Position numbers and translations under genes: made by a program
IMG/VR virus record: IMGVR_UViG_3300013901_000015
Span: 11,879-75,878 of that record
Strand: one strand, 5' to 3'
Source of the DNA: a virus
Lineage: Duplodnaviria > Caudoviricetes
Length of the DNA: 64,000 bases
The notes under the pieces: model-generated
What the model was told of the DNA's origin: nothing
What the model saw: only the letters and a program-made list of their open reading frames with translations
Databases searched by the model: none
Shown here: positions 9,570 to 44,900 of the stretch, piece after piece
Numbering within the stretch: the stretch's first letter is position 1
Layout: each line of letters opens with the position of its first letter

Positions 9570-9699
9570 ATAGTATAATTGTTTACAGATTTATTTAAAT
9601 CCTGCCTATCCTCACGGACTGGCAGGGAGTTGCTTTTTCAAATTCAAAATTATGAATTGCTGTGCCGCTGCACATAGCTTCTATGCGTGAATAAAATAG

Positions 9700-9810
9700 T
9701 CCTCGCAGTTGGACTTGAACCAACGACCAAGTTGCACGGTTTGATAAGAATGCGTTAAGGATTTACACTTCTGTTACGTGCTTGCTCTAACCAACTGAGC
9801 TATGCGAGGA
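9700..9810 (-). tRNA. tRNA-like element with a 38-nt anticodon loop
   Basis: Minus strand: acceptor TCCTCGCA/TGCGAGGA, D arm TAGCTCAGTTGGTTAGAGC, T arm GTTGG-TTCAAGT-CCAAC, anticodon stem GCACG/CGTGC enclosing 38 nt instead of 7. Confidence 0.7.
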
Positions 9811-9987
9811 ATGTTGAGGGCATCGTGCGCAACCACGAATTTAAGAGCCATGCTCACCCACATTTCAGAAAATGCAAAAGTAGTATATCAGTTTAAACTA
9901 TCAATTATGGCTGAACAATCAACATTCACTCTACTTGCACTCTGCATTTCTGAATATATTGTAAGGACTTAATAACTTCTCTTTTTT

Positions 9988-10191: not shown

Positions 10192-10263
10192 TGGGAAGTA
10201 GAGGAGTTGAACCTCTGTAACTTAGCGAATCGCACAGTATCCTAACCGTTGGATGAACTTCCA
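10192..10263 (-). tRNA. degenerate tRNA (pseudo-tRNA) with mispaired anticodon arm
   Basis: Minus strand GGAAGT/ACTTCC acceptor, ATCC-AACGGTTA-GGAT D arm and AGAGG-TTCAACT-CCTCT T arm; anticodon stem CTGTG/CTAAG has two mismatches. Confidence 0.55.
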
Positions 10264-10480
10264 AAAACCTCTCCTATCTGTCACAGACAAGAGAGATATT
10301 GACAAAGTAAGCACCGCTGTGCTATTCAAAATGCTATAAAAATACTCATATATTCTCAACATATGTATAGTCATCATTTTTAAACCTCTCCCATTCTCCC
10401 GAGCAGGAGAGGTATAACGCTAAAACAATCTATCATACACTACTATCATATAATAGTAGGATTATCTAAAAGCCAAACGG

Positions 10481-11275: not shown

Positions 11276-12412
11276 TTATATCTTACCCTCTAAATTATCA
11301 AAAGCCGACTGCACATCTTTATTGAGAGTTCGGGCATACCTTGTGGTTTGTCTCAAAGTTGTATGACCAAGCACCCTTGCCACGATGTTGATGGGCATCC
11401 CCTTAGATAGAAACAATGTAGCAGCAGTGGCACGCCCCATGTGCGTATGAAGTCTATCGACTCCGACCATCTGCCCGATTACCTTTAGGTAGTCGTTATA
11501 CTTCTGATTTGAAATCTTCGGCATCTTAAAGTCGTATTTCTTTAGTAGTTCTACGGCAGGAGTGAGAAGCTGAAACACGAAATCAGTGTCTGTCTTCGTT
11601 CTTTTTGAATGATAGAACATCTTTCCGCCCATTTCCTCGCAGTTGGTGTAATCGAAAGATTGCAGGTCGGAGTAAGCCATACCAGTATAGCACTGGAACA
11701 AAAACAAATCCCTAGCTTGCTGCAAGTGTGGCGTAGCCAAGTCTAAAGCCTTGATCGCATCGAACTGTTCTTCGGTGACACAATCCACATACTGCTTTTC
11801 TCCCTTGCCAATATGGAAAGGAAGAAACTTGTAGGGATTCTGCTCAATCAATCCATCTATCACCGCATCATTGATAAATAGCTTGAGATACTTATGATAG
11901 TCATAGATGGTTGACTGAGCCTTTCCTTGCTTATGGAGGTATTCATCCATCGCGCGAATCTTAGCCACATTGCAATCAGAGAAGGCAATAATCTTTCCCC
12001 ATTCCTCCAAGAACTTGATGAAGACATCATAGCGTTTCTTGGTGTGCTCGCATACCTTGCGCTCCTTACGTCTCTTCTTGCAGTATTCCAGAAAGGTTCC
12101 GCTCATATCATCCTCTCCATTGAAAAGAGTAGGAATTACAGACAAGTCAGTGCATCCCATCTTGGTCATTTTGAGAACCACTGCCTCGCCTCTCTCTCTG
12201 AACGCATCCAACTGCTCGTTGAGTGCATCGGCATTCTTGCATTTGATAATCTTCTGTTGTTTGTCAGACCATTGTGTCGGGACAACCTTGATGCCGGTCG
12301 AGATGTACTTTCTTTCCGACTTGTAAGAGAACCTTAATTCGATAGAAACTGGCTTTTGTGCCGTTCCTCGCTTCAACCGATTGTGAATAATACTTAAATT
12401 TACTCTAGCCAT
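11276..12412 (-). CDS. int: tyrosine integrase (Bacteroidetes type)
   Basis: N-terminal arm-binding region (KYISTGIKV), SAM-like domain, FQCYTGMAYSD, HMGR, LGHT and catalytic RYA. Confidence 0.92.
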   Translation of the reverse strand: MARVNLSIIHNRLKRGTAQKPVSIELRFSYKSERKYISTGIKVVPTQWSDKQQKIIKCKNADALNEQLDAFRERGEAVVLKMTKMGCTDLSVIPTLFNGEDDMSGTFLEYCKKRRKERKVCEHTKKRYDVFIKFLEEWGKIIAFSDCNVAKIRAMDEYLHKQGKAQSTIYDYHKYLKLFINDAVIDGLIEQNPYKFLPFHIGKGEKQYVDCVTEEQFDAIKALDLATPHLQQARDLFLFQCYTGMAYSDLQSFDYTNCEEMGGKMFYHSKRTKTDTDFVFQLLTPAVELLKKYDFKMPKISNQKYNDYLKVIGQMVGVDRLHTHMGRATAATLFLSKGMPINIVARVLGHTTLRQTTRYARTLNKDVQSAFDNLEGKI

Positions 12413-12684
12413 TTTGATAACATAATTTTACGAGGTTGATAACATTTTGATAACACACCTCAAATTTAACATTTAGTCTCAAAATAGCCGAATGGATTCA
12501 TTTTCAAGGGTTTAGCTAATGTTGTGAAGAATACGGCACGTAAACACGTTTACAACAGGTATTTCTACGTTAACATTTGCCCTTAAAATGAAAAAAGCGG
12601 ATATAAGTACTTGATAATAAGTAGCTTAAATCCGCTTTTCTTTTAGATAATTTATTGTTCTAGCGTTATTGTTTTGCCTATTTC

Positions 12685-12700
12685 GTGATTCCGTTGGGGT
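12685..12700 (-). other. probable attP core matching a tRNA 3' end
   Basis: GTGATTCCGTTGGGGT reverse-complements to ACCCCAACGGAATCAC, a T-stem plus acceptor-stem-like tRNA tail; flanked by TTGATAACA arm-like repeats (12414, 12436, 12447) and variants at 12762 and 12773. Confidence 0.6.
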
Positions 12701-26997: not shown

Positions 26998-29900
26998 ATG
27001 GGATATGACAGAATAGATTCGATGTACGATGCACTATCCAAGGATGGCGCACAGATTGGTACTAGACAACAATTCAAGAAACTCATGCTAGCGCCTGGTA
27101 AGCAGGGCTATAAGAACCGACTGGGCTTCTATAATGCGATGAAACAGGACGGTGCCCAGATTGGTAACTCATACGAGGACTTTGCTCGGGCGATGGGGCT
27201 TCATGCGGTGAAGCCTCAGCAAGCTAGAGCACAGAAACCTGTGTCTCAGCCTAGCAAGCCTATGACTACTGCAGAGAGGGCAAGGCAGATTGGTCAGGAG
27301 TATATGCAGGGAAAGGCAGGAAAGAGCAAACAGGCTAGTGCTGGCAACACTTCTAGCACCGACTATATGAAAAACTGGCAGTTGATGCACAAGCGCAATG
27401 ACCAGATGACTCCAGTCGAGCAGATGCAAGCCAACACCATGCGTTCTCGCATGCAGCAAGCACAGAAACAGGCTAGTCAACAGGAGCAGCGCAGGGCGAA
27501 CCCTATCAGTCAGAGCAGAATCACGCCGACTGCACAGAATTTCAACGAGACGATGCAACAGCTTTCGTCTTCACAAGCAAAGAGGGCTAGAGCGGTGCAG
27601 CAGCGAGAGGATGATGCCAGAAACTTGGCTCAATATGAGGTGGAGGGCAATCAATTTGCTCATAACGATGGCAAGTTTGGAACCATTGCGCCAGAGATTG
27701 ATTCTCTAGTTGCTCCTTCAATGAAGGAAGCGGACGATCTGTCTTGGACTCAGTATCAGCAGGACTTGAAGAATGCTGGCAATGATGCTTATCTGAGAAA
27801 CAAGGCTTGGAAGGACTTGCAGGACAACAGAATTAAAAACCGCCAGAACGTACTTGCAAACAACCTTAGTGCAAAGTTGCAGGAAATCTACTCTCAGAAA
27901 GGGCTGCAGGAGCACATTGTACAGAGTGCAGATAAGCTGAATATGGGCGTTGAGGAGTATGTGGATAAATATGTTACCCCTCAGATGATGCAGCGTGCTC
28001 AGAATATTCTCGGCGTGAAGAATATCGAGGAGATTTTGCCTCAGAGTGCCACGGAATACGTGGTGAGAAGACTCAGCGACTCTATCTTGGGTACTTTGTC
28101 GGCAGGACAGGATAAATCGAGAGAACAGATTGCCAGAGAGCAGGAGGCGATGGCTATTTCTGACGGATTGGAAGAAATGCCTACAGTAAAAGGTTACAAG
28201 GCAAACGAAGGCTACAAGTCTGGTGCCGGCGCACGATTTGCTTCTACGGCTGCTAACATGGCGATGGACTCCCCTATCCTCGGAATGACAGGCGGCGCAG
28301 CTAATATGTCGGTCGATTTGGGTAAGCAGGTACTGATGGGAGGTCTCGCCAAGGCAGGATTGGTGAAGATGGGTGCCAAGCTGACCGCACAGCAGTTGGC
28401 TTTCAAGGCTGCCAATATGACTATGGCGCAGAAGATTGCTTCTGGCTTGGTGGAAGGCTCGGCAAAAGGTGCGCTCAACTTGGGTGGTTACTCTAGTATT
28501 ACGTCTGCACTCGGACAGGCTTCCACTGGTAATGATACTTCTTTGTCGGCATTGGGAAAAGCAGCATTGGAAGGCTTCGAGCACGGTGCCACTACTGGTG
28601 CGATGTTCGGCGTGTCGGGTGCTATCATGGCTCCTTGGGTGTCCAAGTTCGGCATCAACGGATTGGAGACTAGCACAGGAGAGAAATGGTTGCACGGCGC
28701 ACAGAAGCTTGGTGCCACTGGTGTAGGTCTCGGCGTGGAGGCAGGAACAATGATGGTCGCAGACAATATCACTGGTGACAAGGATATTTCCGTAGGCACA
28801 TGGTTGGAAGACTTGGTGATGGTGGGCGCATTCAAGGCAGGAGAACCTAAGAATTACGCCCATATCGGTAGTGCTCTATATGGTCTTGTGCATAACACCA
28901 ACAACACCTTCCGTGTGGGAAAAGACCAAAACGGCAAATGGCGTACGGTGGACATACACATGACGAAGGACGAGCAGAACGAGTTGATGAACTCTGTTTC
29001 TGGCAAGAACCTCGTGGAAACATTCCAGAAGGTGGATAAGTCTAGCCTCAACTCAAAGACTCCATTGGATAAGAGTATCACCAAGCAAGCTTATCAAGAC
29101 TTCATGAACGACCCTAACGTATCGCAGAGCACCAAGGAGAAGGTGAATGCGGCGATGGGATTGTTCAATACAACGAGTGCCAAGAGCTACCGTAGTGTGA
29201 ACGATGTGCAGAACAAACAGATTCTGGAGTATTCGAAGAACGGTACCTTGCTCACTCGTACCTCTTATAAGAATGCAGATGAACGCCGTGCCATCCTATA
29301 CAAGCAGAAGTTATATAGAGACAACGAGGAAATGAGGTCTTTAGCAGGTTACTCTAAATTGAAAGACTTACAACCGACTGACGAGAACGGAGAGGTTACA
29401 CGGCTCGCCTTTGCGTTTCTTACAGACAAGGGGTATAATCCAAACGAGACTGTTACGGAGGCTAACAATGCTCGATTAATTGCAGGGTTGCGAGACAAGA
29501 ACAGCGACCTGTACAAGGAATGGGAGAAGTACGTGGATAGATTCGGTTCCCTCGGTATGCTGATTTCCGATACAAGAACGTGGAAGAATGGCTTGTTGGA
29601 GGTATTCATCGGAGACAGAGAAATAAGCCTTGACACCATCATGCGCAAAGACCCAATGAAGCGTACGGATGAAGAGAATAAGATTTTCTATCAAGTAAAG
29701 GATGCTTTAGAGAGCGAACTATTCCCTAACGGTAAACCTCATGCCGATCAGAGCGAAACACAGGGACAGAGTGTTGCCGAGGACAACAACCTTGGAACCG
29801 ACCAGCCTAACGGAGAGGCGGTGAAGCAGGAGTTGAACGGACTGAGACAGGCTGAGACTGAAATGGACGTGCTGATGCGAGACAATGATGTGTTCAGCCA

Positions 29901-32900
29901 GAACTTCAAGAAGCTACAGAGCCAGGGTCTTACCAATCCTCAGATTTATGATTGGATGGTTCAGAACGGACTGACACAGGAACAGTTGGAACCATTTGCC
30001 CATTATATCAATGCGAACGCTAGAGTGCAGGGTATGCAGGAGGCTACCAAGCAGAAGATTGAGGAAGTGGTGAGCGGTGTCGTGCAGGATTGGTCTTACC
30101 ATGGAGAGCTGAACGGTCAGAAGATGAACGGCGAACAGGTGGTTTATGTGCAGGACAGCGAAGGCAGAACCTTGATTGTTGGCTCTGGAGACGTGGCATT
30201 TGACTCTACCACTGGGCGTGCGAAGGAAGACGTGGGCGATCTGCTTATCTGCTTCGACCCTAACACCAAGGAAATGGTGTACTTGAAGAAGGATGATGTT
30301 ACCTTTATGCAGACTCAGAATCCCGATGATTTCGGCAATGAGTATCGCCAGAGATTGCAGATGATTAACTCTCAGCCTTACAATGAGGCTGCTCAGGAAC
30401 AGGCGATGCAGGATGCAGGAAAGTCTGAAAATCAGAATCAATCGGAATCAATCGGAATCAATCAGAATCAAAATTCGGAATCAAACGGAAGCGAGAAAGC
30501 ACCACAAGTTGATACCACTTCGCCAGAAGCTAGTACCATAACGGCGAAAAATAATACCACAAAAGAGGGCTTAGCACCACAAGAGCAGCCTCAGCAGACC
30601 AGAAAGTTTGCAGATGGCACCGATGTGCCTATGACCAAGGACAGCAAGGGAAGACCTACGCCCGACTATGGAGCGATGAAGCCAGAACAGGCGGCTGAGA
30701 TTCTTTCGCAGGACTTCGGAGAGAACGCCGAGAAGGTGGTTGATGGGCAGATTAAGAAAGCCGAGAAGGCTTTGAAGGATGCCGAGAAGATGAAAGTGGA
30801 CTACACCGCCGAGCCTAACGACATCTTGGAACAGGAGCAAGTGAAGGCTCAGACCGTGGAAGCTGCAAAGAAACAGCTTGAACAGGCGCAGAACATCAAG
30901 AAGGCGATGACTGCCAAGGCTGTGGCGGAGACCGTTGGCAAACCTACCGATGAAAAGGTGGAGGGTGCTAACGAGGCTAGCAGCGAGGTAGCCAAGAAGT
31001 TCCAGAATGCGCCGAGATTGCAAGGCAACCACGTAAGCAAGCGTCTGCCAAACGGCGATAAGATTAGCGGACACTATGAGATTGTTCCTGCCGAAAGCTT
31101 GACTCCTTCGCACGATGTAATGAATGACTATAAGAAGTCAGAGGGCTTCCCTGTGGATGCAGAGGGAAGAACTATAAATGATAGAGACTATGAGCACGAC
31201 AAGGCGGCGCAACAGACCACCGACCAGATGGCTCAGAAGTACAGCGGACAGGCGATTTCTCAGGTGCCTACGGTATCTGACGAGGGTATCGTTTACGATG
31301 GCAACGGAAGAACCATGGCAGGACAGAAGGCTGCGAAGAACGGTACAGATGCTGAATACATCGAGGACTTGATGGACAATGCCCAGAACTATGGCTTCAC
31401 CAAGGAGCAGATTGAGCAGAGTGGAATCGAGCATCCACGTCTTGTGATGGTAACTGATGAAAGATTGCCTTATGATACGGCTACCTTCTCCATGTTCAAC
31501 AGAAACGAGAAGAAGACGCAGAGCAACACCGAGCAAGCTGTGGCTAAGGCTAAGACCTTGACTAGCGACGAGGTGGGTGCCATCGTTGCCGACATTGAGG
31601 GAAATGGTAGCTTGGATGCTTTCTTTAACAATTCCAAGGCAATAAATGACTTGGTGAAGACGTTAGTAAGTAAAGGTGTCATCGGACAGAACGAGGTGGC
31701 TGGCTTCATGGATGGTCCAGACAGACTGTCGGCGCAGGGCAAGGAGTATGTGAAGAACCTCTTGCTTGGCTCTGTGTTCAAGCCAGAGACTATCCGTATG
31801 CTTGGAGTGGATAGCAAGATCAAGAACGCTGCCATCAATGGCATTCGTGCCATCATGGATAACTTGAAGCTGGGCGACTACTCTCTGCGTGACGAGATAG
31901 ACCAAGCCATACAGTTGCTCTACGAGGCTGGAAGAAACAAGATGAGCGTGGATGACTTGCTGAAACAGAGCAGTGCCTTCGAGGAGAACGCTAGGGATAG
32001 ATTCCCGATGATTGCACAGGCTATGGCTCAGGCTCTGGAGGATAAGCCTACGACTTTCAGAGAGTTGATGAGCGAGTACAACAACATCGCCAAGAACTAC
32101 AACACGAACGAGGGCACCTTGGGATTCTATGATAAGTTAACGCCTGAGCAGGTTGTGGAGGAGTTCCTCAACGCTAGCAAGGCTATCAAGAACAATAACA
32201 TCAAGCTATATGGAAAAGAATCAGAAACTGAAAGAAGCAATGATGCTGCTGGCAATGAAGAACCTTCAAATGAAGCAGGAGGTGCAGCTGGCACAGAAGG
32301 AAATGGGAATGCTGAAACAGAACCAGAAATAAAGGTTAAGAAAGCATTGAAGCGCATCGCTACCGAGATTACCAAGCAGACAGGTATCGAGGTGGTGACG
32401 GATGAGCAAAAAGCCAAGAAAGCACTTGATGAAACAGAAAACATCAAGGTACAGCGTGCATCCGCAGGTAGCACAGTTAGTGGTATGGAAAAAATGCCAA
32501 AGGGTTTGCAAATGAATCCTAGCGTATTGACCGACCAGATACTTAACTATCATGGCGATCATATCGCAAAGCTACTTGGTGAAGTACCAGAGGATAGTAC
32601 TGTTAAGTATTTCTCTGCACACAATGGAGTTTGGTATTTCTACCGAGTAGATCATGACCGCAATATCATCCTTGATGGTGCCATTTCTGCCAACAAAGAC
32701 AATTATCGTGAATACGAACAAAAGATAAAAGAGTATTATGGAATTGACGGCGGCGCAGAAGCTATTTATAATTATGTGCAAGAAGCAGGGTTTGACACAG
32801 GAGCAAACCGCAATTTGCATGACTATTTTCTCGAAGGAGGAAATACGAGACATTCTGCAATGGGTGAGCGACCTAATGAATCGCAAGGGGAAGCCAGAGT

Positions 32901-35900
32901 TGAAGACAACAGAACTTCTGGACGAACTTTACGACAGGGCTCTAGCGAAGAACAAAGCGGAGCGATTAAGGAGTTCCGTTCTGCCAACGGTGAGGTCTAT
33001 GGATTCACGGTAGATGGCAAGATTTATCTTGACACCAAGAAGATGAAGCCTGAGACCCCTCTGCATGAGTACACCCATTTGTGGACTGAGGCTTTGAGGA
33101 ACGGCAACCCTACAGAGTGGGAGAACGTGAAGAGTCTCTTCGATGAGGTTGAAGGACTGAAAGAGGAGGTTCAGAAGCTGTACCCTGAGCTAAAGGGCGA
33201 TAACCTTTACGAGGAGATGATTACCACATTCTCTGGTCGTGAGGGTGCCAAGAAGCTTGAAAAGGTTGTGCGTGGTCTCGCTAAAGAGGATGGAAAGACC
33301 GTAGAGGAGAGAGCCAAGGCTACAGGCTTTATCACCAAGGTGAAGGAAGCTTTGCAGAAGTACTGGAAGGGTGTGGCTGACATGCTTCATATCCACTTCA
33401 CTTCTGCCGAGGAGGTTGCCGACAAGGTTCTTGCTGATTGGGCTAGCGGCTTCAACCCAAATAAAGCTTTCGATGTAAATGACAGAGATGGCGATTATAC
33501 GAAGAATAACGTTGAATACATTGTTAAAAATACAAAACTCCCATTTGGCAAAAAATACGGAGAAGAACTATCTCAAGAAGAAGTCAAGTCGTTATTCTAT
33601 GGGGATAATGATTACTCAAAGAAATACGGCAAACTATTCGATAGAGTTTACGATGTTGCTCGAAAACTAGGTATAAAAATTAGCTTCAAAATACCACCAG
33701 AAACTTATAGTGCTTATGGTCTAGCTGATTTGGATAACGTATATCTAAATCCTATACTTCTTGCAAGAGGAGAGCATAAGGTTTTCCCAAACAAGAAGTA
33801 TAGCCTTTACGTTAAAGAAGATACGCTTCCACATGCAATGTTGCATGAGTTAATACATTCTGTTACAGCCTACGCTTTGGAAAGATATGAAAGAGACAAG
33901 GATAGTATGCCTAAAGAACTAAGGGCAGCTGCGGAGTCTTTGATAGATTTGTATGAAGCTACGAGAAAGGCAACTCTGGATTACGTTAATGAATATGGAA
34001 GAGAGAATGAACAAGAATTTATCGCTGAATTATCTAATCCTAATTTTTGTAAGCTTCTAAAGAAGACAAATGTTTGGACTAGAGTGAAAGATGCGATAAA
34101 GCAATTCTTCTTCCCTCTGATTTCTTCCGAAAAGAATGTGTTGGATAAGTCGTGGAAGGAGACAAACTCTTATAAAGAGCTTTCTTCTTTACTTGATGAC
34201 TTTTTAGAGCATAGTGACAAAGGTCTATTTGAAGAAGAGATTGGTGTGCAGAACGGTGAAATCAAGGGCAAGGAAGAAGCTAAGGAAGAACCTGTTCCTA
34301 TCATGCCGAAGCCTGTAGATCCTAGCAACCCTATAGAAAAGGCGGCTGAGGACTACAAGAAGGAGCATCCTTTGAGCGAGGATGAAATATTGAACACTAC
34401 GGCGTTCGATGGTTTGCCTGAAGACCAGAAGCAGTATTGCATTGATGCGGCTTTGGACTATCTGAATGGCGAGGACACTTCGGCTATTTCCGAGGCTTAC
34501 TATAGAAACGCCTACGAGAAACGTTCTAGCCGTCCTGCCGAGACAGCGAAGGTTGCCAAGGCAGACAGCGAGACTGTCAAGGCTGGACAGGCTGAGGTTT
34601 CTGCCGACCCAATGGAAGGAATCAAGAATGCCGCAGAGGGATTCGAGCAGGAGAAGGCTGAGAGGGAAAGAAAGCAGAAGGAGGCTACCCAGAAGGTTCT
34701 GAACGTTATCAAGGCTTCGAACGAAAAGGCGAAGACCAGAAAGCAGTTGGAGGCAGAGAAGAATGCAGCGGACAATGAGTTTGAGGCATTCATGAAGGAA
34801 CTACGCAAGAAACAGAGCGGTCAGCTTAACTCTGGCTTCATCGACCAGAACTTGATTGAGGCGGCACCAAAGATGTTCTCTCTTGCAGCAAAGTGTGCCT
34901 ACACTCGTATCAAACTGGGCATGTATGATGCCAAGGAGGTGGTGAAGGATTTGCGCAACCGCTTCAAGGATGCTTTCGATGGATTCGACAAGCGAGACGT
35001 GGAAACCTTCTACTCTGAAATCATGAACCAGAAATGGCGTGATGGTGATAAGAGAATGAGCCTCAACGAGTGGGCAGAGCATTACAGAAAGCTTTCTCCT
35101 GAATATAAGGAGAAACTGGAAGGCGACTCGAAGGATGCCGAGGAAAGGAAGATGAGCGAAAAGAAGTTCATTGACCGTGTGAACATTCGACTTGGATTCG
35201 GACAGAAGATAAACGGCATCGTTGAATTGAGAAAGATGGCTGAGGAATGCGGCTTGAAGGATGTGAAGGACACAGACCTTCAGGAATTGGCAGAGACTGC
35301 CATTGTGCAGAGAGCTAGAGGTATCGCTTCGTCTGCATCCACAAATGATGCCAAGAAGTTTGAACTCATCAAGAAGCTTTACGAGAATCAGCCTAGCCTC
35401 AACCAACGTGATTCTGAGCGAGTGATGAAGCAGCAGTATTCTACCCCTGCCCCATACGCTTTCTTGGCAGACATGTATGTGAAGGGAGGCGGCAAGGAGG
35501 TGAAGAGCGCATTGGAGCCTAGCGCAGGAAACGGTATGCTTACCATCGGCTTGCCTATGGACGTGGTGCATGTGAACGACATTGACGCTCAACGTTTGGC
35601 GAACCTGAGAAGACAGGGCTTCAAGAACGTGACGAGTCAAGACGGTACTCAGCCTTTCGCCGACAAGGACGTGGACGTGGTGGTAACTAACCCACCATTC
35701 GGTAGTGCAACGCCAAAGGAGTATGACGGCTACAAGATTTCCTCTCTGGAGGGTCAGATGGCTATCAATGCCTTGGAGAGCATGAAGGACGATGGTCGTG
35801 CTGCCATCATCATCGGCGGCAAGACGGAATACGCCAAGAACGGAAGTCTGAACCCAAAGGATAAGGCTTTCCTTGGTTATCTCTATAGCCACTATAATGT

Positions 35901-38900
35901 GGAGGACGTGATAAATGTGGATGGCAGTCTCTACGCAAAGCAGGGAACGACCTACCCTACACGTATTATTTTAATAAACGGAAGACGCAAGTTCGACCCA
36001 GAAAACAAGGTGTACCCACCAGTGGAGAAGAACGCTAGAGCAGAATCCGTGAAAGATTATGACGAACTTTATAAAAGAATAAACGATGACATACTACGTA
36101 GCAAAGACAAATCCGTGGATATTCACGGAGAAGAAAAGCGAAAAGGTGACAATGCAGGTGGTAGAACAAACGTTTCTGATTCTACTAAAGAGAATGGTGG
36201 ACGAGTCGGACGAATGGGAGACGAAGGAGTTTCTGACAGAACTCCTGCAAATCCTAAACAGACTGAACTGGACACAAGCACCCGACCTGTGGAGCAACGA
36301 GAAGATGCCAACGGAGGAACAACTGAGAGTGCTAGCGATGGAAATAGTAACCCAGACACAAGAGGGGGACAAACTTCTGTACCACAATCTGAACGAACCG
36401 ATGGAAGTAGCGGACGAGGAGACAACTCTATCTCTGGAGGAAGCAACACTAGCGCAACTGATAACGGAACAGATGGACGAGAGCGTGGAGTACGACTACA
36501 GTCCTCAGATGTTCAATCAGTAAGCAACACTCCTACCCAACCAAAGGAAGAGAAGAAACAAACTTTGACTACAGAGAAGGTTGCATATACCCCTAGCAGT
36601 CATTCCATGTCGCTCGGTGCCGTGGTACCAGCTAGACAAAAAGAGGCACTTGAAACGGTATTGAATAAGCTTGGCGATGCCGACCAATACTTGGTAGATA
36701 ACCTTGGCTATAATGACAAGGAAGATTTGTACGCACATCTCGCCGCCGAGCAAGTGGATGCTGTTGCCTTGGGATTAAAACAGATGGAGAAAGGCAATGG
36801 CTTCATTATTGGAGACCAGACTGGTATAGGTAAGGGAAGACAAGCTGCTGCCATCATTCGTTATGCGGTTAAGCAAGGTAGGATTCCAGTATCGTTCACC
36901 ATCAAGCCTAACCTTTTCTCTGACACCTATCGTGACTTGACAGACATTGGTAGTCCTGAATTGCGTCCATTTATCCTAGCCTCCAGCAAGGATGGCAACA
37001 TTAAGGAGAACTACGATGAAGAGGTGAAAGGACTTGACGGAAGGGTTACCAAGGTAAGAAAACAGCGCATTATATATAATGTGCCAAGCACTACAGAAAC
37101 ACAACGAGTATTAAAATATATCGCAGAAAACGGAAAATTGCCAGAGGGATATGATTATATCCTCACCACTTATTCGCAAATCAGAACGGGTTTGCAGGAA
37201 TATAAGGGTGGCAAGTGGAAAGATAAGAAAAAGATTAATGCAGCTGACCGCAACGGACAGTTGAAGCGTGATGCTATTGAAAAACTCGCAGAGAACAGTA
37301 TCTTTATACTTGACGAAAGTCATGATGCCGCAGGTGAAGGAAGCGGAAGTGCATTCATTCAGAAGGTTTTGCCAAAGGCTAAGGGCGTAACATTCCTTAG
37401 TGCTACCTATGCAAAAACTCCTGATGCGATGAAACTGTATGCCTTGAAGACAGACTTGGGCAGTAAGAGCAAGGACGAAAAGGACGAAAAGGATGATGCT
37501 TCTTGGAAAATTCTGAATGCCATCAAGAAAGGTGGTACCGTGTTCCAAGAGATTATGAGCCAAGCCTTGACACGAAGCGGTCAGATGATTCGCCGTGAGC
37601 GAGATATGACTGGCGTAACCATCGACTGGAATCCACTTACCGAGGACGAAACAGAGATTCAAGCACAACGAGACAAGTTTGACAATATCTTTGGTATATT
37701 CAACGACATATTGAACTTCCAACGTACTTACGTGGATGCCAAGTTGGGGGAAATGAGCGATGATGCCGCATTAATCCAAGGTAGCGTGGACCACACACCT
37801 GGAACAAAGGATATGGGTATCGGCAACGTTACATTTGCAAGCAAAGCTTACAATGTAGTACAGCAAGCACTCTTCTCCATCAAAGCTGAGAAGGTGGCAG
37901 ACTATGCCATCGAAGCCATCAAGAACGGAGAGAAACCTGTTATCGCAGTAAACAACACCATGGAGGGTATGACAGACGAGTACCCGATGGGAGAAGTGAT
38001 GGATATGCCAGACCTTAATACTACCCTTATGAAAGGTTTGGAAGGTATATTGAGATACACCGAGAAGAATGAATATGGAGACCGAGACAATAAGGTATTG
38101 AGACTTGAGGAACTTGGCGAAGAAGCAGTGGCACGATATAACGAAATCAAGGAAAAGATAGCATCTGCCACAAGCGGACTGAGCATCAGCCCTATTGATG
38201 TAATCAAACACAGGTTGGAGCAAGCTGGCTATCGTGTGGGAGAGCTGACTGGTAGAAACACCGAGTTCGTATATAATGAGGATGGAAAAGTGGTAAGACA
38301 AAAGCGCACCGATACCAACAAGAATGCCTTGGCAGACCGATTCAACAATGGTGATCTTGACGTGCTTATCTTGAACCGTTCTGCCTCAACTGGTATTTCT
38401 CTTCATGCCTCTACTAAGTTTAAAGACCAAAGACAGCGCACCATGATATTCGCTCAGATGCAAGGGAATATCAACGAGGAGGTGCAAATGCGTGGTCGTA
38501 TCGACCGCACAGGACAGGTAAGACGAGGAAAGTACGTTTACTTAGTTTCATCCATCCCAGCCGAACAACGACTGATGATGATGTTTAAAAATAAGCTGAA
38601 ATCATTGGATGCCAACACTACTTCTTCGCAGAAGAGTAAATTTAACGAGGTAGATGTGCAAGACTTCACCAACAAGTATGGTGACGAGATTGTTTTGCAG
38701 TATATGGCACAACACCCTGAGTATTACAATAAATTAGCAGACCCTCTTGGTTGGGGGTTCATGGAGTATGCCCAAGATGGTTTGTCGCTCACAGAGTTGA
38801 AAGAGAAAACAAAATCAACCATTACTTCACCTGCATACGAAGTAATGAAAAGACTTACCTTGCTACCAGTAAAGGAGCAGGAAGTGGTATTGAAGGATAT

Positions 38901-41900
38901 ATCTGACACCTATGCTCAAAAGATTAAGCAGTTGGATGACATGGGCATGAACGACCTTGAAATAACTGACATGCCTTTGGAGACTAAGACCTTAAAGCGT
39001 GAAGTATGGAAGGAAGGTTCTGACCCTGGCGGCGATAATGCCTTTGCTGATAACACTTATATCGAAACCGTTGAAATGAATGTATTGAAGAAGCCTATGA
39101 AGGCTGACGAGGTACAGTCAGCGCAGAAGAAGATGCTTGACGGAAAGGATTGGGAAACATGGAGAAGCGATAAGATTGCCGAAATCAAGAAGGCGCAACA
39201 AGCCAAGATTGAGGAAACAAAGGCAAAGATGGCTGAGCAGATGGAAAAGAAAGCTGCCAAGACAGAAGAGAACACTCGCAAGGCTCTGGAGAAGCAAAAC
39301 GAAAAACTCCAAAAGAGAATAGATAAGGGTGAAGAACTTAAACCGGGAGAGCATGTCTTAACGGAGGATGAAATCGACAATAGAATTAGTGCTGTTGTGG
39401 ATGATGTTAAGCGTAAAATGTTGGATAAGCAGTCGGAAGCTATTGCTGGAGTAAACACTAAATACGAAATGTTTATCGGTCCACTATATGTTTTTGACCC
39501 TGACAAGACAGTTAGCGTTCCTACCGATTGGTATCTGGAAGACGCTAGTCCTTCTACTTATCCTGAGTTTGGTAGAGTCATCGGATTCAAGTATGACAAG
39601 AACTATAATCTTGGCTCATCTTCCATAGTGATTGCTACAACTGATTCTAGAAAACGTGTAGAAATTCCTCTGACAAGACCAAAGGCACTTAGTAGAATAG
39701 AAACGGACACCGAAAGATTCGCCAAGGAGTGTAATGTTATCACAATGAACTCTTGGGATAGACTGATTCCAAAGAAAGACCGCACTACTGGGCGCATTAT
39801 CACAGGAAATATGTTGGAAGCTTTGGCTGACAACAAGAATATCGGTCACTTGGTTTCTTACACTACCGATGATGGGAAAGTGAAGCAAGGCATCTTGGTA
39901 CCTGATAGCGTGAGCACTGAGGAGATTACAGGTAACATGCCTATTGCCAAGGCTTACAACTGGTTTACCAAGAAAGAAGGTGGAACTGAATTAAAGTCCA
40001 CTGACGGAAATTTAAGATTAGCCAAAAACTTTGGCTCCATGTACACCCTCTATGTGCCAGCTAGCAGAAAAGAAGGTGGTAAGTATTATCTGAACAAAGA
40101 GTTACTCGACTTAGTACACGGTCATAACTTCCAGTCGAAAGGAAAGAACTTCTGGGCTACATTCGATGCAGAAAAATTGCACGATGTGCTTCATATCTTG
40201 AATGGTATGGAAGTTCAGGTGAAGACCCCTAAGGACTTCGAGGAAAGCAGAACCCACTTCCGTGAGGATCGAGGCATTCAGTATTCTAAAACAGATGCAA
40301 AAGATGTTAAGAATAGTAGAATCATTCCCGAAGATGTGGATAAAAGTGTATCTTCGCAGATTGAAAAAACTTATGACTCTGCCATCGAAGAGGCTTATAA
40401 ATATGTCAGTGAGAAAGACAAGACTAGACTTCATTCTGATGTTGAGCGAGACTTGCGTGAGTTCTCAAAGATGCGCAGAGAAGATATTGTTAATGATATA
40501 AAACAAAGAGAATATGATTTTAGGGAGTGGGAACGTAGCGGAGCAACGCCTGATAAGGGAGGCTTTGTCGGATATAGATATGCTCGGTTTAAAGCTGCCG
40601 AAGCAGCAGCCAAACGAGAGCTGGACTATAGAGACGCTAGAGCAAAGCATCTCTCAGATACTTACGGATTGCAAGAAGGAAGAGAAAACAATCTTGATGA
40701 GGTGGCTCGAATTTATCGAGAACTTCAAGAAGAGAAAGATAAGGGACGAGATGCGTTGTTCTCAAAAGCACTGGATATTGTAAAGCGACTAGGCACTGAG
40801 TTTGGTGGCATAAATGATGCCCCTGCAGAAAACTATGCTGGTGTATCTACCACTCAACGAGAGGTGGCTTTGTTTATTGATACGCTTGCAAGAACTAGTA
40901 CGAGAAGAGAAGCCACTGCTAAGACTTTGCTTCACGAAATGATACACCAAGCTACGGTTGGCGCCATAAACCTTGTGCGTAGAGGAAATGCAGAAGGCTT
41001 ACTTACACCTAAGCAGATTGATGCCGTAAATACCATTTTGGATATTTATGACAAGGCTGTGGCTGATGGTAGAATTCATTATCAAGAAGGTGTCAAAAGC
41101 GACTATGGAGGCAAGAATCCTTATGAGTTTGCTGCTCAAATGGCAGATACTGTTCAGCGCAAAAAGCTTGACTTTACATTTGGACAGAAAGTAATGAATG
41201 CCTTTAAGGAACTGTGGAATAAAGGCGATAGGTCTTGGAAGGATGCCTTCAAAGATGCTTGGGGAAAACTCTTAGAGACATCTGATAAGAAAAAGATGGA
41301 TAAGGCAATCAGCGACATCATGGAGGATTTCAATGAGACTATTGATGATATTTCTATGAGAGATATTGAGTCTAGAGGAGGAACCTTCGCTGACAAACTT
41401 TCTAACGATTCTCCTGTTTCTTCCCACATTGCCCAACTGTCAGAAAAGGTAGGTGACAAGGTGAACATGGTTCATTCTGCCGATGAGGTAACCAACAAGC
41501 AAGCAAAGGAAGCCATCGAGGAAGGCAAGCATATCACTGGCTGGTATGACGAGAAGACTGGCGAGGTACATCTTTACATGCCTAATATCCACGACCGGTA
41601 CACTGCCGAGAAGACTATCTGGCATGAGGTTGTGGGACACAAGGGAATGAGAGAGTTGTTTGGTGAAGACAGATTCAACAGGTTCCTGCGTGATGTGTGG
41701 TATGACTTGGATAAGCCTGAGAACGCCGACTTGAAGAAGTTGGTGATGGAGGAAATGAAGTACAATCCGTTCAATGTGTATAATGCCATTGAGGAGGGTA
41801 TCGCCCGACTTGCCGAGGAAGGAAGAGGCGAGGCTGGTTTCTGGAGAAACTTAAAAAATAAGGTTTCTGACTTCTTGCACGAAATCGGTTATCGCATGGC

Positions 41901-44900
41901 TCCTAACACCAAGGATGTGAAGTATCTGCTCTGGTTGAGCAAGAACTTGCAGAAGAATCCTAACGATCCTTACTGGAAGATGAGAGCCGAGGCGGTGAAA
42001 TACCGTCTCGACCATGAGGATGTGCCTGACGTTATCGCCAAGGATGGTATGTTTCAGAGTAATGATGGCAAGGCTCGGGACTTGGGCGACTTGCCTAAGG
42101 CTGAGTACCAAGAGGCAACTGACGGAAAGATTCATTTCCGCACTACCCCATCGGCTGGCACGGCTCTTGATAGATACCATCGTTCGCTTGATGAGCACGG
42201 CTATATGTTCACTGAGAGTTATATGGACAATATGCTTTCGCTTAAGAACTTGATGACGGCGATTGCGCCTGGCAAGAAGATTGAGGATATTGCCTCTTCG
42301 GAGAATCCTTATATCTTGCAGAACACGATGCAGGGAGCGATGAGCGATGCGGCAAGAATGTTTGAGCGCAACGTGATGAAGCCTCTCGACAAGGCGATGG
42401 CAGGGGTGCTTGATGCCTTCGAGGGCAAGAATGACGATGAGAAGATTCGTAACTTCAACCTCTACATGATTACCAAGCATGGTTTGGAGCGCAACCGTAT
42501 CTTGTATGTGCGTGATGCCTTGAAGGACATGCGCATGGACGAGAAAAAGAAGAAGCTTGCCGATACCATTGAGAATGATTGGGGCAACGAGAAGGCGACA
42601 CTTGACGAGAAGTTGGAGCGTGGCGACATCGACTTGAAGGAGTATTACAAGCAGATGGATGACTTCATCCGTACTTACGTGGATGAAACGAATAAGTTTG
42701 ATGCCGGCGAACACGACTATTCGGGCATTCACGCCATTCAGAAGGTGGAGAAAAGTTCCGACCCTTACGATGATGCGGAGGCTATACAGAGCGTGATGGA
42801 CTCTGAGGGCAGAATGGAGGACATCAAGAAGGGCGCAGTGAAGGACTATTGGGATAAGGTGAAGACTGCAACCCAGTATTCCATCGACTGTGACTATAGG
42901 AACGGACTGATAAGCAGGGAGCTGTATGGTCATGTTTCGGAGATGTTCAACTGGTATGTGCCTCTGAGAAAGTATGACGAGGCTACGGCGGAAGATACAT
43001 ACGGATATATCACCGAGAAGGGCGACCCTAAATCTTACATCGGCAAGACGATCATGAGGGCAAGGGGTCACAAGTATCTGAGTGAAACGAACATCTTGGC
43101 TCAGATTGGAGCGATGGGCAACCGTGCCATCAAGAACGGCGGACAGAATGCCATCAAACAGGCGTTCGCTAGATTCATCAGAAACAACTCGAACAATAAT
43201 CTTGTGACGGAAACTAGCGTTTGGTATGTAAGCGACCCTATCACTCAGACCACCGTGGAGCGTTACCCAGATATTCCTGACGATGCGACTGCTGACGAAA
43301 TCAGCCAGATTGTTAGCGACTTCAATATGGAAATGAAGGACTTGGCATCGAAGGGATTGGCTACGAAGGTGTATCGCAGAGGAAGAATCGGGTATAAGTT
43401 CCAGAGAGCGGAGAACAAATCTCAGCATATCGTTGATGTGATGATTGCAGGAAAGAAGCACTCCTTCATCGTGAACGGAAACCCTAGGGCTGCACAGGCT
43501 CTGAATGGATTGCTGGAGCATAAGAATGAGACTGGCATCGGTAAGATTGCTGGCAAGATTTCTAGATTTATGGCTCAGACCTGTACGTCTTACAACCCAG
43601 AGTTTGTGATGAGAAACATGATTCGTGACTTCGAGTTTGCTTCTTCTAACCTCTTGGCTAAGGAAGGTGCAAGATATACTGGTATCTTTGAGAAGTACTA
43701 TGCGAAGGTTGGTATCATAGAGGGTATCAGAAATTCTAAGCTGAGCGACTTCAAAGACACAGGCGGTTTCGGCTTGTTTGTCAAGTATCGTAACGGAACG
43801 CTTGACACTTCCGACAAGATTCAGAGATATTTCAAGGAGTTCATGGAGAACGGCGGCGAAACAGGTTGGGTACAGATTAAGAGCATGAAGGAATGGACGG
43901 AAGAGTATAAGCGTGACATCAAGGCAGAGCGCAACAAAGCTGTCAAGGTAGGAAAAGGATTCTACAATGCCATCTTTAAGAACTTGGAAAATGTGAACGA
44001 GATTGCCGAGAACATGGCTCGTTTCGCTACCTATTGTGCCAGCAGAGACAGCAATCGTTCGGTAGTACGTAGTGCTTACGATGCGAAAGAGGTGTCAACC
44101 AACTTCAACCGACATGGTTCTGGTAGTGAAATCAAGAGCTTCAAGAATGGTGAGATGGGATGGTTCGAAGAAAAACGCAAGCAAACCTATCGCTACACCT
44201 CTGCTTGGTTCAGAAATACCTCTATGTTCTTCAACGCAGGTATTCAGAGTACCAACTTGCTTGTAAAGAACTTGAAGAACAATACAGCTGGCACCTTGGG
44301 ATATATTGCAAGCGGTCCTATGATTAGCGGTATGGCTATCGCTCTGCTCAACAACTTCCTTATCGCCAACGAGGACGAGAAAGACCGCAAGGGAGTGAAA
44401 GACCCATACGGCGAGTTGCCAGATTACATCAGAAGAAACAACTTATGTGTATATGTGGGCGGCGGCGAGTTTGTTACCATTCCGCTTGCCATCGAGGAAA
44501 GAGCCTTCTATGGACTTGGCGACTTGGTGGCAGGACTTACATTCTCGCCTAACATTAGCGGACAGAAGAACCCTTTCTTGGATGCAGTGGGCTGCATGTC
44601 GCAATTAGTTCCTGTGGCTGATTACCTTGGCAATGCTTCATTTGGTAAGCATCCTGTTCAAGAGACGGTGAAGGCTGTGATGCCTTCGGCTACCTCGCCA
44701 TTTATCGAATGGGCTTACAACAGCGACTGGAAAGGTGCTCCTATCGAACGAGACAACAAGTTTGACGAGAATCAGCCAGCTTGGATGCTCGCTTACAAGG
44801 GTACTCCTGACGTGTTGTTGGACTTAAACAAGAAGGTTAATGCGTGGACTAACGGTGTAGCCCCAGGTAATGAGGATATGCTTGGAAACAGCTTCTTGGA

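Follow-up and report, generated by a model that had tools for sequence, protein, structure and literature searches.

A conserved tRNA-shaped RNA with a rebuilt anticodon arm and a structured leader in the early region of temperate phages

Results

The phage locus and its probable host

The window, a 64,000-nt stretch of DNA analysed here in full, comes from a temperate phage. On its minus strand, about 1.5 kb from a Bacteroidota-type tyrosine integrase gene, lies an RNA gene with the shape of a tRNA but with a greatly enlarged anticodon arm (Table 1). The genes for NinG, dUTPase, an SbcC-like protein and RecT follow downstream. The tRNA-shaped gene is one module of a small non-coding cassette with which, in every case examined, the early recombination operon begins, upstream of a NinG/RuvC-like resolvase, RecT and SbcC/exonuclease. 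Synteny around the cassette is unchanged in distant relatives, where it likewise sits between immunity/integration and recombination genes. With the integrase and the attachment site upstream and the NinG-dUTPase-SbcC-RecT series downstream, the cassette occupies the position of an early-operon leader. No RNA-related enzymes were found among the neighbouring genes. Elsewhere in this 76-kb phage a single open reading frame encodes 6126 residues (26998-45378, plus strand). Long standard-code frames run across the window, and stop-codon recoding with a suppressor tRNA left no sign.

The host is probably Segatella (Prevotella), a gut bacterium, because the characteristic insert of the RNA was also found in a metagenome-assembled genome (MAG) contig of Segatella copri and because relatives of the phage are integrated beside a host tRNA-Arg(UCU) gene. 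Related prophage contigs begin within that host gene, just upstream of the integrase, and the window carries a 16-nt copy of the tRNA-Arg(UCU) 3' end that is the probable attachment-site core. The tRNA-shaped gene was itself considered as the attachment site and rejected, the true site being the one upstream of the integrase. Just upstream of the integrase start codon, TGTTATCAA occurs three times (12413-12456, minus strand); these copies may be arm-type or operator sites. A string similar to TGTTATCAA is present in the conserved strand of the RNA insert, possibly by coincidence.

Table 1. Coordinates of the cassette, its neighbours and related cassettes (window numbering unless a locus is named)
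Feature	Position	Strand	Basis
Hairpin with inner GUGA-capped stem, downstream of the tRNA-shaped gene	9601-9626	minus	conservation 0.93
Downstream hairpin, conserved AGCG loop, covarying stem	9661-9674	minus	alignment of 9 lineages
Trailer CUAUU, immediately 3' of the discriminator	9695-9699	minus	alignments
tRNA-shaped RNA gene: acceptor, D arm, long anticodon arm, T arm	9700-9809	minus	Rfam, ARAGORN intron mode, covarying stems
38-nt region inside the 5-bp anticodon-arm stem	9739-9776	minus	alignments, conservation, folds of 10 variants, pair counts
Near-invariant 3' strand of the arm	9740-9751	minus	alignments
Inner helix of the arm	9765-9768 with 9752-9755	minus	pair counts, folds
Invariant 9-nt apical loop AAAUCCUUA	9756-9764	minus	alignments
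Two-hairpin leader, 40 nt, 3-bp outer stem	9819-9858	minus	conservation 0.89, RNAalifold
Leader hairpin 2	9823-9838	minus	RNAalifold
Leader hairpin 1	9845-9855	minus	RNAalifold
Match to Bacteroidota -7 promoter box, TACTTTTG	9875-9882	minus	sequence
Second tRNA-like element, abnormal anticodon arm, hairpin before it	10194-10263	minus	weak Rfam match, 20 bits
Tyrosine integrase, Bacteroidota-type	11276-12412		
Attachment-site core (probable), 16-nt copy of tRNA-Arg(UCU) 3' end	~12685-12700	minus	~275 nt upstream of integrase start
Leader before normal tRNA-Lys(UUU)	L227:8845-8970		
Leader before tRNA with 59-nt insert at 37/38	L222:3474-3658		
Leader before reduced acceptor + T-arm form	L215:8801-8944		
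Leader before reduced acceptor + T-arm form	L243:10313-10441		

A tRNA body without a canonical anticodon loop

An earlier reading made from the sequence alone had described canonical acceptor, D and T arms at this position, and these can be followed in the minus-strand letters. The acceptor stem has seven perfect base pairs (9803-9809 with 9701-9707) and is followed by a discriminator A (9700). U8 and A14 are both present, the 4-bp D stem (9797-9800 with 9784-9787) closes a loop that contains GG, and the 5-bp T stem (9720-9724 with 9708-9712) carries the T loop TTCAAGT, so that the window copy has the 7-bp acceptor, GG-containing D arm and T-loop consensus of a canonical cloverleaf. When the whole window was searched, the Rfam tRNA model RF00005 matched the gene at 46.1 bits (E = 1.2e-6), with an alignment that spans model positions 1-71 and holds a 51-nt local insert. 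It is the sole Rfam tRNA match in the complete 75.9-kb virus record.

The anticodon arm departs from this pattern. A canonical 7-nt loop with U33 and a purine at position 37 is absent; instead, as the same reading had claimed, a 5-bp stem (9777-9781 with 9734-9738) surrounds exactly 38 nt. Outside this helix, and parted from it by a 3-nt bulge, lies the outer pair 27-43, which is A-U in some subtypes and G-C in others; because it covaries across the bulge the variable loop probably has the normal 5 nt. ARAGORN called no tRNA here in default mode and found no tmRNA in tmRNA mode. In intron mode it called a tRNA-Leu with anticodon CAA, a 31-nt intron and the loop U-U-CAA-A-C, a solution identical to the one proposed earlier from removal of 31 nt.

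The rebuilt arm has a layout of its own, consisting of a 5-6-bp stem, an asymmetric internal loop, an inner helix of 4-5 bp, a 9-nt apical loop and a 3' strand. The 5' third of the insert is its more variable part. The 12-nt strand on the 3' side, which contains UCUUAUCAA, is near-invariant across relatives, conservation peaks at 0.91 in 9741-9760, and the final ~30 nt of the insert are nearly invariant while NinG identity is merely 46-82% in the same phages. The inner helix is paired in 94% of alignment cells. Its changes are mostly from G-C to G-U; the variation of its 3' strand consists almost entirely of transitions, and these preserve the pairing with the U/G-rich 5' strand. Of the inner hairpin suggested before, the 4-5 bp beside the loop recur in relatives, and the AGAA/TTCT extension was found in the window alone.

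Diverging scaffolds around a conserved insert

Protein searches with NinG and the integrase yielded 118 related loci, nearly all of which have a homologue of the RNA about 400 nt upstream of NinG. A scan with the insert motif found one copy per contig in 73 related IMG/VR contigs, all of one phage group (roughly 65-80-kb), and the element is also present in the S. copri MAG contig. Across 185,579 species genomes the exact insert motif was confined to three MAG contigs, all carrying the same phage locus.

The tRNA scaffold is strongly divergent between these lineages and falls into at least seven types, between which the acceptor and anticodon stems are wholly different and some 30 nt of the insert stay near-invariant. 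Between the window copy and its nearest subtype, five of the seven acceptor pairs have changed and all seven are still paired. A covariance model (R1) was built from the leader, the cloverleaf and the inner helix. In its alignment of 80 copies (57 of them distinct), 93.8% of the cells in stems are paired, against 80.8% in shuffles and 28-48% with partners slid, and 27 of the 38 pairs show changes on both sides; these counts are biased towards the structure, the alignment having been fitted to the model. Stem swaps between types are also evident in plain alignments. The stems thus covary among homologues, and the picture of decaying arms around an unconserved insert was not seen.

R1 also recovers homologues in all related contigs. 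Against 151 Segatella genomes its matches were mostly ordinary host tRNAs, with the insert-bearing form in one genome only and a reduced form in one only. Scaffold types B, C, D and E escaped the Rfam search, and the majority types B and C, unlike the window copy, lack the canonical cloverleaf as judged by Rfam. The most common types are degenerate as tRNAs and have a C at position 55 of the T loop.

A two-hairpin leader and flanking hairpins

Directly upstream of the tRNA-shaped gene is a 40-nt leader, which like the attachment-site core does not figure in the sequence-only reading and which is conserved as strongly as the insert. In distant relatives its hairpins show compensatory changes and full stem swaps. 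A small reading frame over the leader (MALKF...) was considered and rejected, since the same frame gives stops or unrelated residues in distant relatives; because the hairpins persist while the frame breaks, the leader is a structured element and not a gene. Neither the leader nor the arm matches an Rfam family, and among GenBank phages there was no leader match, the only hits being generic D-arm matches to tRNA-Arg.

The leader motif occurs in several phage groups, and a few nt always separate it from the tRNA or tRNA-like gene that follows (Table 1). In L227 that gene is a normal tRNA-Lys(UUU); a decoding tRNA can thus occupy the cassette, which counts against the non-decoding reading favoured below. 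The reduced form that keeps the acceptor and T arm follows the leader in L201 as well as in the two loci tabulated, forms with loops of ~15-22 nt follow it in L066 and L073, and L045 and L047 have a form with a different 36-nt loop.

The CUAUU trailer is present in most relatives and resembles host tRNA trailers (A then CUUUU; host tRNA-Arg flank). Farther downstream, the hairpin with the GUGA-capped inner stem is found in nearly all relatives, and few non-coding blocks of the region are as well conserved. Three related hairpins with a short inner stem occur here, at 9601-9626, 10269-10295 and 10384-10413 on the minus strand. On the other side of the cassette, the -7 box noted in the sequence-only reading is indeed present as TACTTTTG, and the transcript may start from it a few nt before the leader; at this position a comparable match was seen in only one other lineage of those checked.

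Other tRNA look-alikes and insert-bearing tRNAs

The window contains a second tRNA look-alike. Its positional homologue in L077 (3088-3160) has a 6-nt loop and scores 52 bits, and those in L133 and L198 have a 7-bp stem capped by a tetraloop. Every look-alike is directly preceded by a stable hairpin.

Inserts are also found in other tRNA genes of this setting. In an S. copri MAG (L122, G001:C203:79870-79973, minus strand) a 104-nt tRNA-like gene is followed by a trailer of the same type and holds a 31-nt insert that differs from the one described here; for ARAGORN it is an intron-containing tRNA-Ile(GAU). Related phages have further tRNA genes with inserts of ~50-130 nt (L053:3788-4009, L049:3214-3352, L105:2207-2361); the insert in L053 holds a T-arm-like hairpin, as the introns of Lak megaphages do.

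Discussion

What might explain why a phage keeps the body of a tRNA while its anticodon loop is replaced by a conserved arm? The reading that we prefer, with a probability of roughly one half, is that the gene encodes a non-decoding RNA in the shape of a tRNA, which RNase P and RNase Z probably excise and which would bind a putative partner through its rebuilt anticodon arm. The gene belongs to a conserved non-coding cassette in which a two-hairpin leader is followed by a short spacer, the tRNA-like body and the CUAUU trailer, with the acceptor stem, the T arm and the elbow kept by compensatory evolution. The acceptor stem, the T arm and the host-like trailer are always kept. RNase P, RNase Z and the CCA-adding enzyme recognize just these parts, which is why excision is proposed. 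Most likely, the tRNA body would serve as the substrate by which host RNase P and RNase Z release the RNA from the early transcript; CCA would then probably be added to it, and the body would also confer stability. In distant relatives the same leader precedes the acceptor and T arm alone, that is, a minimal RNase P substrate. Excision would at the same time part the integrase section of the transcript from the recombination genes, and the new ends would be protected by hairpins.

That the apical loop and the 3' strand are so strictly conserved suggests that the excised RNA, or the arm while still nascent, binds a putative partner, and the single-stranded loop and strand would be the working surface for this RNA or protein. 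In the phage genome, the insert has no significant complementary site and no second copy, and duplex scans of the neighbourhood gave no target site conserved across lineages. Pairing of the apical loop with the region of the conserved downstream hairpin was rejected as a candidate; the match is seen in few lineages and is neither conserved nor covarying. A non-translating mimic or an RNase P signal had been the second option of the sequence-only reading, and this fits the stem covariation, the conserved insert, the other look-alikes and the relatives reduced to an acceptor/T-arm minihelix.

The first option had been a decoding tRNA interrupted by a short intron, in which removal of ~31 nt would restore a 7-nt loop with anticodon CAA (or UCA), and which would be kin to the tRNA introns of Prevotella megaphages. 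This is unlikely and has gained little support. The canonical loop given by ARAGORN and an AUCAA string that is invariant among copies speak for it, and the related cassette in L222 has a tRNA with its insert at the classical position 37/38. The Lak megaphages of Prevotella have 'enigmatic' conserved introns in their tRNA genes (Devoto et al. 2019, PMC6784885), for which there is no known mechanism, and the 5' part of the insert loosely resembles the starts of two of them. Those introns are 79-93 nt long, lie beside position 37/38 or exactly there, include a T-arm-like hairpin and interrupt good tRNAs with clear anticodons (Table S6, PMC6784885). The element described here shares with them the host group, an anticodon loop that is interrupted, in a phage tRNA gene, by an insert of conserved sequence, the lack of a known splicing route and the lack of an Rfam match. 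It differs in that its insert is only 31-38 nt, lies off 37/38, has a small helix and an invariant loop of its own, and is mostly carried by degenerate scaffolds. The Lak combination of 79-93 nt beside position 37, a T-arm-like hairpin and an anticodon in the 5' exon is not found here.

Further evidence goes against splicing. The insert is far below the size of a group I intron (~200 nt or more with its core) and no Rfam intron family matches the region, so the earlier judgement that it is too short for such an intron holds. Folds of 10 variants showed no bulge-helix-bulge, that is, no 4-bp helix flanked by two 3-nt bulges. The insert lies elsewhere than at 37/38, U33 would be missing from the 5' exon, and the bases destined for positions 37 and 38 vary between subtypes. 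In intron mode ARAGORN left 59 of the 80 copies uncalled and divided the rest between CAA (10) and UCA (11), and the inferred anticodon shifts with the placement of the boundaries. The variable loop is short, whereas bacterial tRNA-Leu has a long variable arm. Finally, the 63 tRNA matches in the S. copri MAG are 58-89 nt long, apart from one tRNA-like match of 104 nt; judged by these matches, the host would probably have little need to splice tRNAs.

Could the RNA serve as a sponge or decoy against a tRNA-attacking host defence, its body luring an anticodon nuclease or similar enzyme and its oversized loop trapping the enzyme or resisting the cut? Such a role would suit a tRNA body that is retained when the anticodon loop is abolished, the location in the early operon and the presence of several tRNA look-alikes per phage. 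A related cassette has a tRNA-Lys(UUU), a tRNA that PrrC and other anticodon nucleases are known to target. Enzymes that read the anticodon stem-loop ought not, however, to recognize a 38-nt loop, and the majority type has a degenerate T loop and acceptor base, contrary to faithful mimicry. A passive decoy would not need ~30 nt of strictly conserved sequence, and no defence gene or nuclease is linked to the element in the present analysis. We therefore consider a decoy improbable.

A barer version of the processing model is that the element is mere punctuation, at which RNase P and RNase Z part the integrase section from the recombination operon, the insert being kept for some other reason, for example as a protein site on DNA or on nascent RNA. 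The stable hairpin domain directly before each tRNA-like element, the reduced relatives that retain the acceptor/T-arm minihelix alone and the conserved position between immunity/integration and recombination genes are all consistent with punctuation. A bare signal nevertheless leaves the invariant 9-nt loop and the 12-nt strand unexplained, given a NinG identity of 46-82%, and we rate it as distinctly doubtful. A decaying tRNA pseudogene or a phage attachment site would be suggested by an integrase 1.5 kb away, of a kind that often uses tRNA genes, but it is refuted, and barely credible, since the arms covary, the insert is conserved, the relatives are integrated beside tRNA-Arg(UCU), across the integrase from this gene, and the scaffold matches host tRNAs in the generic D arm only.

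The non-decoding, partner-binding RNA that we favour can be set beside several known systems. Like ordinary phage tRNAs of family RF00005, it has acceptor, D and T arms, the bases for tertiary contacts and a host-like 3' trailer. Unlike them, it lacks a 7-nt anticodon loop, has a 3-nt bulge in the anticodon stem and in most of its members falls below tRNA detection thresholds. Laboratory 'tRNA scaffold' constructs express an RNA placed in the anticodon arm; there too a foreign segment replaces the anticodon loop, but those constructs are engineered and the phage element is natural and conserved.

The nearest functional model, by analogy, would be the C4 RNA of phages P1 and P7. C4 is reportedly encoded in the leader of an early/immunity operon and is said to combine tRNA-like features with functional exposed loops, without forming a full cloverleaf; its targets are reportedly known and lie within the same transcript. 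By analogy, the phage element resembles C4 as a small RNA in the early-operon leader of a temperate phage, with the shape of a tRNA-like RNase P substrate and with exposed loops. It differs from C4 in having a full cloverleaf and in that no significant or conserved complementary target was found for it. C4 is an antisense RNA that RNase P is described as releasing from a precursor (Hartmann et al. 1995, as cited in PMC4919922), whereas the present RNA resembles an RNase P substrate in shape only.

More broadly, and tentatively, temperate phages of Bacteroidota may possess a previously undescribed leader + tRNA cassette in which the tRNA body has repeatedly been turned into a scaffold for regulatory RNA; in the Segatella version, RNase P and RNase Z would release the RNA, and its invariant loop and strand could control the choice between lysis and lysogeny or disarm a host defence. 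We hold this wider view as possible rather than probable. The family also reveals a covarying 40-nt leader, not in Rfam, as a companion of tRNA and tRNA-like genes across several groups of phages. With 57 distinct sequences on several types of scaffold, it offers a compact and well-sampled case for the unexplained tRNA inserts of Prevotella phages. Phage tRNA genes are usually read as helpers of codon usage; in this family, selection has acted on the tRNA shape together with a sequence that is not an anticodon, which points to regulatory or counter-defence tRNA mimicry in abundant phages of the human gut.
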